64,000 bases of DNA from an uncultured Alphaproteobacteria bacterium (GTDB lineage Bacteria > Pseudomonadota > Alphaproteobacteria > RF32 > CAG-239), in NCBI GenBank assembly GCA_944391615.1, contig CALXUE010000001.1:134550-198549 (forward strand), read 5' to 3'. The position numbers and the translations under genes are program-made. The notes under the pieces were generated by a model, which had not been told where the DNA came from, made no database searches, and saw only the letters and a program-made list of their open reading frames with translations. Positions 4,270 through 5,106 of the stretch are shown here, piece after piece; the first letter of the stretch is position 1; every line of letters begins with the position of its first letter.

Positions 4270-5106
4270 TTACTGTTCAAAAGCGCAGTAGTCGCAGTAA
4301 TCTTGACAGCCCGCAGCACAACCCGTCACATAATATTTGTTGGAACATTCTTCATAAGTGCAGACCGAACACGGCGGGCAGGTGTCATATTCCCCCAAAC
4401 TCGGGCAGGGCTTGCATTCGCTATACATCATATTTGTGCCCGATAAGCACGAGGTTGCCCCGACCTTGCCGCCCATCGAGCCGCAATCTTGATATCCTTC
4501 ACAAGGGTTGACTTTGATTTTATACATCTCCCCGTTACAGGATACACAGGGCTCACCATCCGCCACATAGCCATCGGGAATATCTTCTTTTTTGTAGGAA
4601 TAGCCGTCGCAGTAGTCACATTGACAACTGGCGTAATAACCGTCACCGCACTCTTGCCCCACACCATGATAAGGCTCTTCACATTGCTTATAATTACTCG
4701 GGCAGTCTTCAATACATTCGGCAAAATAACCGTCGGCATACAAACATTCCTTGTTGCCCTTATAGCCATTGGGACAGTTGGTCACGGTATAACCTTCGGC
4801 AATACAATCAGCCGGCCCTTTGGGAACATAATCATCAGGATTACCGCCCGAACCATTCAAATCAGAATCAACAAATTGCATACCAGAACAATCACCGGTA
4901 TCCATAATCCAGCAAACTTGCGCAACTTTGATAAACTTATCGGGAGATAAGCCGGAGGCATCAGACAAAAACTGTGTGTGTTGTGTGTTGGTCAAAAAAT
5001 CCTTGTCTGTTGTCTTGAAATTTGAAACATCAGCATATACATTATTATAACTAAAAAGCCATAATAAAGCATTGCATGCTGAAAACAAAAAAGTTCTATT
5101 TTTCAT
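4270..5106 (-). CDS. Secreted protein with a very Cys/Gly/Tyr-rich C-terminal half (recurring C-x-x-G-Y / D-G-Y motifs, about 35 Cys)
   Basis: Start chosen at the internal MKNRTFLF with RBS aaaggtg; the ORF-track start is 5184. Signal peptide ...FSYNNVYA-DV. Lies 34 bp upstream of the previous gene on the same strand, so a probable operon. Confidence 0.5.
   Translation of the reverse strand: MKNRTFLFSACNALLWLFSYNNVYADVSNFKTTDKDFLTNTQHTQFLSDASGLSPDKFIKVAQVCWIMDTGDCSGMQFVDSDLNGSGGNPDDYVPKGPADCIAEGYTVTNCPNGYKGNKECLYADGYFAECIEDCPSNYKQCEEPYHGVGQECGDGYYASCQCDYCDGYSYKKEDIPDGYVADGEPCVSCNGEMYKIKVNPCEGYQDCGSMGGKVGATSCLSGTNMMYSECKPCPSLGEYDTCPPCSVCTYEECSNKYYVTGCAAGCQDYCDYCAFEQ

Follow-up and report, generated by a model that had tools for sequence, protein, structure and literature searches.

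Multigene families of variable surface proteins under gene conversion include Anaplasma msp2/p44, Neisseria pilE/pilS and Borrelia vlsE. Here we describe a bacterial locus that recalls both these families and Lcl, a collagen-like protein from Legionella. It lies in a stretch of 64,000 nucleotides (nt) from an uncultured Alphaproteobacteria bacterium (assembly GCA_944391615.1, contig CALXUE010000001.1, positions 134,550 to 198,549), called the window below and numbered from its first letter. The locus comprises a cysteine-rich gene on the minus strand (4270-5106), designated A, and the gene downstream of it on the same strand (3390-4235), designated B. By analogy, the A/B cassette appears closest to a lollipop adhesin of the Lcl type, with genome dynamics like those of a gene-conversion-driven surface-protein family, and differs from these by its Cys-rich partner, coiled-coil stalk, per-copy promoters and two-gene organisation. 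We propose, with about an even chance of being right, that A, exported by Sec and held by disulfide bonds, is the stalk or scaffold subunit in a surface-adhesin cassette of two genes, in which the head of B is the variable ligand-binding part.

Lcl is exported by the type II secretion system and forms a trimeric, surface-bound lollipop (PMC11162425). An N-terminal anchoring (amphipathic) helix is followed by a collagen-like stalk, and sulphated glycosaminoglycans are bound by the DUF1566 head; the C-terminal domain of Lcl has no disulfides (PMC11162425). DUF1566 domains are reported as targets of diversity-generating retroelements. The B protein, and fusions of A to a head, would be secreted proteins on the same plan as Lcl (PF07603; PDB 8q4e), with an element for attachment at the N-terminus, then an elongated stalk, and a head of the DUF1566 type at the C-terminus. 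The stalk, however, is predicted to be a heptad coiled coil (B) or a chain of Cys modules (A and the fusions) rather than collagen: in place of collagen-like G-x-y repeats, B has heptads, a helix at residues 62-84 in the AlphaFold2 (AF2) model and a Gly-Ser (GS) linker, and A has Cys modules. The N-terminal element of B is a five-Cys module, whereas that of Lcl is an amphipathic helix. Lcl is a single gene, whereas the cassette has two genes, 12-28 copies and swapped heads, and A has no counterpart in Lcl.

The likeness to msp2/p44, pilE/pilS and vlsE lies in genome dynamics. Here too there are many paralogs per small genome, conserved ends around a variable core, mosaic segment replacement between strains and homogenisation within a genome. 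The sequences, however, are unrelated, and in the cassettes switching is deduced from genome comparison only. The cassette copies also differ in that each carries a near-consensus promoter and a leader, and there is therefore no sign of one expression site with silent donors.

At the level of small modules, A resembles EGF-like domains and the cysteine-rich domains (CRDs) of the tumour necrosis factor receptor (TNFR) type, which are likewise short disulfide-locked beta-hairpin modules with G-Y/F motifs near Cys and act as rigid extracellular spacers. It differs from them in giving no profile match and in a Cys spacing that fits neither the EGF nor the TNFR consensus. The CysRRep repeats of Daugavet et al. 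(bioRxiv 10.64898/2026.06.07.730663) have the spacing Cx6-9Cx5-7Cx8-11Cx7-8CC. They resemble the present proteins in being secreted, in placing Cys-rich repeats ahead of functional domains and in occurring in gut-associated organisms, but the defining spacing is absent from A, the comparison being one of Cys spacing.

The cysteine-rich protein A

A is a genuine minus-strand open reading frame (ORF) that runs from an ATG at 5106 to a TAA stop codon at 4270-4272 and encodes 278 amino acids (aa). A first-pass annotation of this DNA had left the start open between this ATG and a TTG at 5184. The start is ATG 5106: the N-termini of homologues all coincide with its position, a ribosome-binding site (AAGGTG, 5115-5120) lies 8-14 nt upstream of it, and the cassette promoter at 5171-5143 sits downstream of TTG 5184, which places that codon outside the transcript. 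The promoter is of the sigma-70 type with an extended -10 element (TTTACA-17-TGgTATAAT; 11 of 12 consensus matches; 5143-5171, minus strand).

Comparison of paralogs identified a conserved leader motif, GAGTCGTGGAGATAA, immediately 3' of the -10 box (5126-5140, minus strand). Every paralog examined has a promoter of the form TTGAAA-17-TGxTATAAT followed by the leader and a ribosome-binding site, with GAGGTG or AGGAGA in the latter slot. The 15-nt leader GAGTCGTGRAGRYAA is matched exactly, once before each A paralog, at 46 of 76 loci in four metagenome-assembled genomes (MAGs), and has been kept across these four despite the divergence of the A coding sequences to 40-50% identity. It occurs a single time in the window and is cassette-specific. 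A scan of 3200-7600 assigned it to no Rfam family.

The protein contains 28 Cys, 28 Gly, 24 Tyr and 24 Asp among its 278 residues. Its Cys content of 10.1% is the highest in the window, where the 62 ORFs of at least 150 aa have a median of 1.2%, and B comes second with 4.6%. The first-pass description of a Cys/Gly/Tyr-rich exported ORF is thus borne out, as are all the motifs it had quoted: NCPNGYKGNKEC (aa 110-121), DCPSNYKQCEEPY (aa 134-146), CDGYSYKK..DGYVADGEPC (aa 166-187), NPCEGYQDCG (aa 200-209) and GCQDYCDYC (aa 266-274). Its count of about 35 Cys in the C-terminal 180 aa or so was too high, since the last 180 aa hold 25 and one of the total of 28 lies in the signal peptide. The repeat pattern that it described is real as regards recurring short motifs, of which C-x-x-G/N-Y is present three times and [DEN]-G-Y seven, but does not extend to a regular internal repeat, none being found when six sub-modules were compared profile to profile (probability at most 38%). 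A as a regular repeat protein was rejected on the same grounds, the similarities between sub-modules being short and weak.

From N- to C-terminus, three parts can be distinguished, all read from the minus strand. The sequence pattern and the alignment predict a signal peptide at aa 1-25 (5032-5106; MKNR..., hydrophobic core, VYA|D). The A-x-A|D site is conserved in homologues, with A25 present in at least 90%. The N-terminal region of the mature protein (aa 26-95; 4822-5031) was delimited by the alignment and by low AF2 confidence, and contains the best-conserved motifs of A, N-T-x-H-T (N-T-L-H-T-H) and KVAQVCWIMDTGDC (aa 60-73, nt 4888-4929); the mean column entropy is 0.59 bits at aa 61-70. 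The Cys-rich body (aa 96-278; 4273-4821), defined by the alignment and AF2, carries 25 Cys and ends in CTYEECSN-YYVTGC...DYCDYCAFEQ. Within it, Cys module 1 (aa 98-131; 4714-4815) has the pattern C-x3-GY-x4-C-x9-C-x-Y-x3-Y-x3-C and was located with a hidden Markov model (HMM) of the Cys module of B.

AF2, run with the homologue alignment, predicts solely short beta hairpins for residues 95-270, with a predicted local distance difference test (pLDDT) score of about 90; the score is below 50 for residues 1-64 and 75-87. The spacings between successive Cys are 7, 27, 9, 9, 9, 3, 6, 10, 7, 1, 2, 20, 2, 11, 5, 11, 10, 2, 8, 2, 2, 4, 8, 3, 3 and 2. Twenty-four Cys columns are invariant or near-invariant across 74 homologues that are only 42-93% identical; the pattern is not due to chance. 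C246 and C267 covary strictly in these homologues: both are Cys in 56, neither is Cys in 18, and mixed cases number 0. Such covariation is the pattern expected for a disulfide, and the joint gain and loss points to a disulfide pair rather than a metal ligand. The sequence and the structural model support the view that A is a Sec-exported, disulfide-type Cys-rich protein of small beta-hairpin modules.

Gene B and its linkage to A

B (3390-4235, minus strand) begins 34 nt 3' of the A stop codon, is preceded by an AGGAGG ribosome-binding site and encodes 281 aa. Its N-terminus has, by sequence pattern, a predicted signal peptide with an AEA|AC cleavage site. This is followed by a Cys module recognised in the sequence (aa 25-56; 4068-4163), a heptad coiled coil (aa 62-84; 3984-4052; heptads TEINKIKNEITNIKNKITELENN, helical in AF2), the GS linker, and a variable head delimited by comparison of paralogs (aa 95-281; 3393-3953), all on the minus strand. 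B as a lipoprotein, suggested by the Cys just past the signal peptide, was considered and rejected: the conserved cleavage site, A-x-A|A-C, is that of signal peptidase I and no lipobox, position -3 being E, Y or N, not L. Across the B family the module is near-invariant (C-I-Q-T-P-x-C-S-S-L-G-Y-x5-C-x-G-G-x-K-C-P-F-G-N-A-W-N-C). The family comprises at least 527 clusters, and Pfam PF07603 (Lcl_C/DUF1566) is found in many B paralogs; B of the window itself gave sub-threshold matches only in Pfam and NCBIfam scans. By analogy, B appears to be a counterpart of Lcl in which the stalk is a coiled coil.

The pairing of the two genes is highly consistent. B was found by BLAST directly 3' of A on the same strand at 58 of 75 loci in five MAGs, and two more loci have a divergent B in this position; a further two are interrupted by contig ends. 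At the other loci of the 75, A itself reaches 440-720 aa, being extended by extra Cys modules and a C-terminal Lcl_C-like head. These extra modules bear an EGF-like motif, C-x-C-x2-G-Y-x-W, and the C-terminal domain is of the type GKTPIGVV...GDWCLPA...WSS...VRPVLEF. For the head of one such fusion (L004) the Lcl_C score is 33.6 bits, where the cutoff is 34.9. Among 77 long A relatives, Lcl_C was detected in five, a pectate-lyase-like adhesive domain in one and RANK_CRD_2, a TNFR-type CRD, in one (6e-7). In the proteins P0082 and P0206 the B module is located after the A body. P0206, a metagenomic protein of 1067 aa, carries the C-terminal half of the A body together with a B-type module in five to seven tandem copies with a period of about 146 aa.

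The same arrangement recurs in more distant relatives. A B-type Cys module immediately follows the A segment at 53 of 57 distant metagenome loci, and at locus L079 an A of 299 aa ends in a B-type module and precedes a B of 315 aa whose head is DUF1566-like. On these comparisons, the linkage and fusion of A and B are conserved down to about 34% identity.

The two proteins also have a Cys module in common. An HMM built from 53 B modules matches A at one site, module 1 (aa ~98-131), in 69 of 74 homologues, with a maximum of 18.9 bits and a median of 6.6; the window copy scores 6.1, and 370 composition-matched shuffles reached at most 5.7. The hhalign alignment of A module 1 with the B module is weak and in register, and some A variants end in a C-terminal B-type module. 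In 63 of 74 A homologues, and in all 57 of B, the mature protein is predicted to contain an odd number of Cys. These counts, which come from related sequences with deduced cleavage sites, hint at one Cys per protein that is unpaired or engaged in an intermolecular disulfide. A role for A at the surface or at a ligand interface is plausible, because A is co-transcribed with, and sometimes fused to, heads of the Lcl_C/DUF1566 adhesin type.

Distribution of the A family

A word-indexed search of 5.8 billion proteins returned 85 A clusters (90% identity; E 1e-17 to 1e-177), nearly all 270-300 aa long and full length, without a Pfam domain or name. A profile search of 1.84 billion cluster representatives returned 413 clusters (50% identity) at E<=0.001, including many longer proteins. 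When the names of cluster members were looked up, none of 10 clusters had one. A itself matches no Pfam-A family (hmmscan, E<=1) and no NCBIfam family, and a profile search of PDB sequences gave a single chance match (E 0.16). The AF2 model gave no fold match; being elongated and multi-modular it is a weak query, and single modules may still be remotely similar to known knots. Searches of the literature turned up nothing specific to the A family or the host lineage. By these searches A belongs to no described family and forms a large unnamed one.

When one genome from each of 185,579 species was scanned, 115 stretches matched; 75 loci were kept, and they belong to just five assemblies. The title 'uncultured Alphaproteobacteria bacterium' is given to four of these (BRZ_CI bin98, BRZ_RM bin80, BRZ_SN bin90 and BRZ_RF bin97) and 'uncultured proteobacterium' to the fifth. 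The four Alphaproteobacteria MAGs hold at least 25, 28, 18 and 12 distinct A copies, these being lower bounds drawn from the best 80 of the 115 stretches. The copies are scattered in the genome; five lie on one contig of 249 kb, and the density of cassettes in BRZ_CI is about one per 50 kb. The window holds one copy, with no A paralog elsewhere in it; the contig index, queried for the identical protein, had no entry for this copy.

The 57 distant A loci came from a metagenome scan; they are 30-44% identical, and many lie on contigs titled 'human gut metagenome'. All taxon-labelled relatives of A are MAGs of uncultured Alphaproteobacteria or proteobacterium, the remainder being metagenome contigs. 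An origin as a phage receptor-binding protein or in a mobile element was rejected, as no relatives of A were found in the phage, plasmid and IMG/VR collections and none of B in phage. From these labels, the A family is one of uncultured, at least partly gut-associated, Alphaproteobacteria. The window is an ordinary diderm chromosome, with infB, nusA, rimP, lptF/G, lptD, surA, ribonucleotide reductase, addAB-like genes and ftsK; LptD, LptF/G and SurA identify the host as diderm.

Evolution of the cassettes

Mean pairwise nt identity among the BRZ_CI paralogs and the window copy is 91% in the promoter, 70-82% in A, 75-79% in the N-terminus of B, 45-55% in the B head and about 35% outside the cassette. 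The cassettes are therefore many paralogs with conserved ends and a variable core. A is 72-80% identical inside a genome and 40-50% identical between genomes.

Two loci allow direct comparison with the window. Locus L076 belongs to a near-identical strain, with 97.8% nt identity in the neighbouring protease-like gene. There, identity to the window is 90.6% over A plus the initial 170 nt of B, and the remainder of B (3390-4065) is unalignable; the L076 B head is Lcl_C (PF07603) and stands beside a 92%-identical A. Similarity between the two strains ends at 5229, just upstream of the promoter. Upstream of its cassette promoter L076 has wholly different genes (ruvAB, tolQ/R-like), which places the cassette at a rearrangement breakpoint, as would be expected if paralogous cassettes recombine. 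Locus L008 is the syntenic locus of BRZ_CI, with flanking proteins 82-95% identical. Its B protein is 81% identical to that of the window, and its A is 50% identical, with an unalignable A body (4380-5126).

The within- and between-genome identities of A, together with the segment replacements relative to L076 and L008, indicate concerted evolution, with homogenisation of A copies inside each genome, and an exchange of B heads between strains. Mosaic replacement is thus seen both in the B head (against L076) and in the A body (against L008), as in gene-conversion-driven variable surface-protein families. A single expression site with promoterless donors was not found: each paralog examined has its own promoter, leader and ribosome-binding site.

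Discussion

We propose that A and B are transcribed together, in that order, from one strong promoter, and that both products would pass the inner membrane via Sec and be oxidised in the periplasm. A would fold as an elongated chain of small disulfide-locked beta-hairpin modules, with the conserved motif KVAQVCWIMDTGDC of its unstructured N-terminal region serving as a docking or anchoring segment. B would be an Lcl-like lollipop made of the Cys module, the coiled-coil stalk and a ligand-binding head. The two would join in one assembly, probably through the common Cys module, in which A presents or anchors the variable B head at the cell surface. Amplification of the cassette to 12-28 copies per genome, with gene conversion homogenising A and exchange of B heads, would yield a repertoire of binding specificities.

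The present data establish how the genes and the operon are built, the signals for export, the conserved Cys framework with its disulfide-type covariation, the linkage of A to B and their fusion, the number of copies, and mosaic or concerted evolution. Several points weigh against this proposal. Disulfide pairing in A is read from one covarying pair and the export signal. Physical contact between A and B, whether through the common module or the unstructured N-terminal motif, is something we infer, as are the surface location, the role as an adhesin and the way in which the outer membrane is crossed; no system for outer-membrane translocation or anchoring was identified in the window. A of the window has no head of its own. 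Further, if A were merely a common scaffold, one copy per genome should suffice.

High Cys content combined with an export signal might instead mark A as a self-sufficient, disulfide cross-linked lattice at the surface or in the periplasm, like the cysteine-rich proteins of the chlamydial outer-membrane complex, with B a mere neighbour. The mostly odd number of mature Cys (63 of 74 A, 57 of 57 B) would permit intermolecular disulfides, and high copy number and strong promoters would suit an abundant product. The linkage and fusion of A with B heads are, however, too consistent for coincidence. A has no Pfam match to the chlamydial Cys-rich outer-membrane protein families, and the host has the normal lipopolysaccharide and outer-membrane protein biogenesis genes of a standard diderm envelope. 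We consider such a lattice improbable.

Obligate A-then-B order under one promoter, with less variation in A than in the B head, is also what a dedicated helper of B would show, that is, a folding template, periplasmic chaperone or secretion partner that stays outside the final surface structure. The position of the A body N-terminal of the head in mature fusion proteins is a better fit for a structural part than for a released helper, and a rigid rod with 27 Cys differs from known periplasmic chaperones. This leaves the helper explanation with little probability.

The first-pass annotation had likened A to EGF-like and other disulfide knots and had suggested that it could mimic a host ligand. 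As a eukaryote-like (EGF, TIL or granulin type) mimic or effector, possibly derived from a eukaryote, A seems very improbable. The part of this comparison that stands is the architecture, AF2 placing small disulfide-type beta-hairpin modules in a protein with G-Y motifs. The C-x-C-x2-G-Y-x-W motif of longer relatives, the RANK_CRD_2 match (6e-7) in one of the 77 long relatives and the relatives on contigs titled human gut metagenome also speak for it. Searches for EGF, TIL and granulin profiles, however, gave no Pfam match to A at E<=1, and A has no NCBIfam, PDB sequence or fold match. No eukaryotic best hit appeared, the taxon-labelled relatives being bacterial throughout. The 12-28 copies per genome, the concerted evolution and the obligatory association with B speak for a structural family of bacteria and against a mimic. 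The EGF-like motifs and the RANK_CRD_2 match are a resemblance between small disulfide modules and not family membership. Nor did A turn out to belong to a known bacterial low-complexity family, the outcome that the annotation had named as telling against its own suggestion; A matches no known family.

Finally, although A is small, secreted and Cys-rich with many diverging paralogs, it is highly unlikely to be a toxin or a bacteriocin-like peptide, or a periplasmic Cys-rich protein of the metal- or redox-binding kind, given that Pfam and NCBIfam show no toxin, immunity, metal-binding or defence-type domain, that the covariation of C246 and C267 indicates a disulfide and not a metal ligand, that the phage, plasmid and IMG/VR collections hold no relatives of A, and that the partner B is adhesin-like and not of the immunity type.

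The stalk or scaffold proposal can be taken further, to a version that we put forward as doubtful. The A/B cassettes would then be an undescribed adhesin-repertoire system of these Alphaproteobacteria in which A, a new disulfide-rich fold, forms a stalk with B that is covalent, through an intermolecular disulfide, or module-swapped; the leader GAGTCGTGRAGRYAA, as a regulatory element confined to the cassettes, coordinates the expression of the 12-28 copies or makes it mutually exclusive; and gene conversion keeps reshuffling the heads. The common Cys module of A and B, and the fact that both mostly have an odd number of Cys, hint at such a covalent or module-swapped stalk.

If the stalk or scaffold reading is true, an uncultured lineage of Alphaproteobacteria with relatives in human gut metagenomes devotes a substantial share of a small genome to one unnamed cassette family, and a new Cys-rich scaffold protein is combined with interchangeable Lcl-type heads. 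A disulfide-rich stalk design would then join the bacterial adhesin architectures, and there would be a concrete handle on attachment by unstudied bacteria, whether the target is the host, mucus, particles or another cell, and on how this ability diversifies. Two domain families and one conserved leader, all unnamed in current databases, emerge from the analysis.

Neighbouring features

The cassette is bounded by terminators on both sides. At its upstream edge a minus-strand hairpin, AGAGGTTTAGG-aacattc-CTAAGCCTCT followed by TTTTTTT (5217-5251, read in the sequence), ends the gene at 5261-5800. At its downstream edge a bidirectional terminator hairpin acting on both strands (3343-3383; stem 3356-3374 plus a T-run) lies between B and a convergent protease-like gene. 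The only match in the Rfam scan of 3200-7600 was a sub-threshold Thr_leader on both strands, which we read as a terminator hairpin.

Upstream of the cassette, the minus-strand ORFs 5261-5800 and 5920-6456 encode adjacent proteins of about 179 aa without an obvious signal peptide and with sub-threshold Pfam and NCBIfam matches only. The ORF at 5261-5800 has weak matches to the H-NS N-terminal domain and to Lcl_C (E ~0.007), and may encode a cytoplasmic DUF1566-like protein beside the cassette. Both ORFs are conserved in L008 and absent from L076.

Between ORF 5920-6456 and infB, some 900 nt (6540-7430) are ORF-poor and contain interleaved direct repeats: four units of 76 nt (at 6552, 6680, 6806 and 7352; 64-93% identical) and three of 78 nt (at 6621, 6876 and 7233). 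The 76- and 78-nt repeats have no Rfam match and are also present in the syntenic L008 at 5650-5990.

On the other side, the plus-strand gene at 352-3327, convergent on the cassette, encodes a secreted protein of 991 aa with a C-terminal Trypsin_2 domain. It has long Pro/Gln/Thr-rich linkers and short Cys-rich repeats of its own (for example CEDNKTMRGCEDN), and is kept beside the cassette in both L008 and L076.

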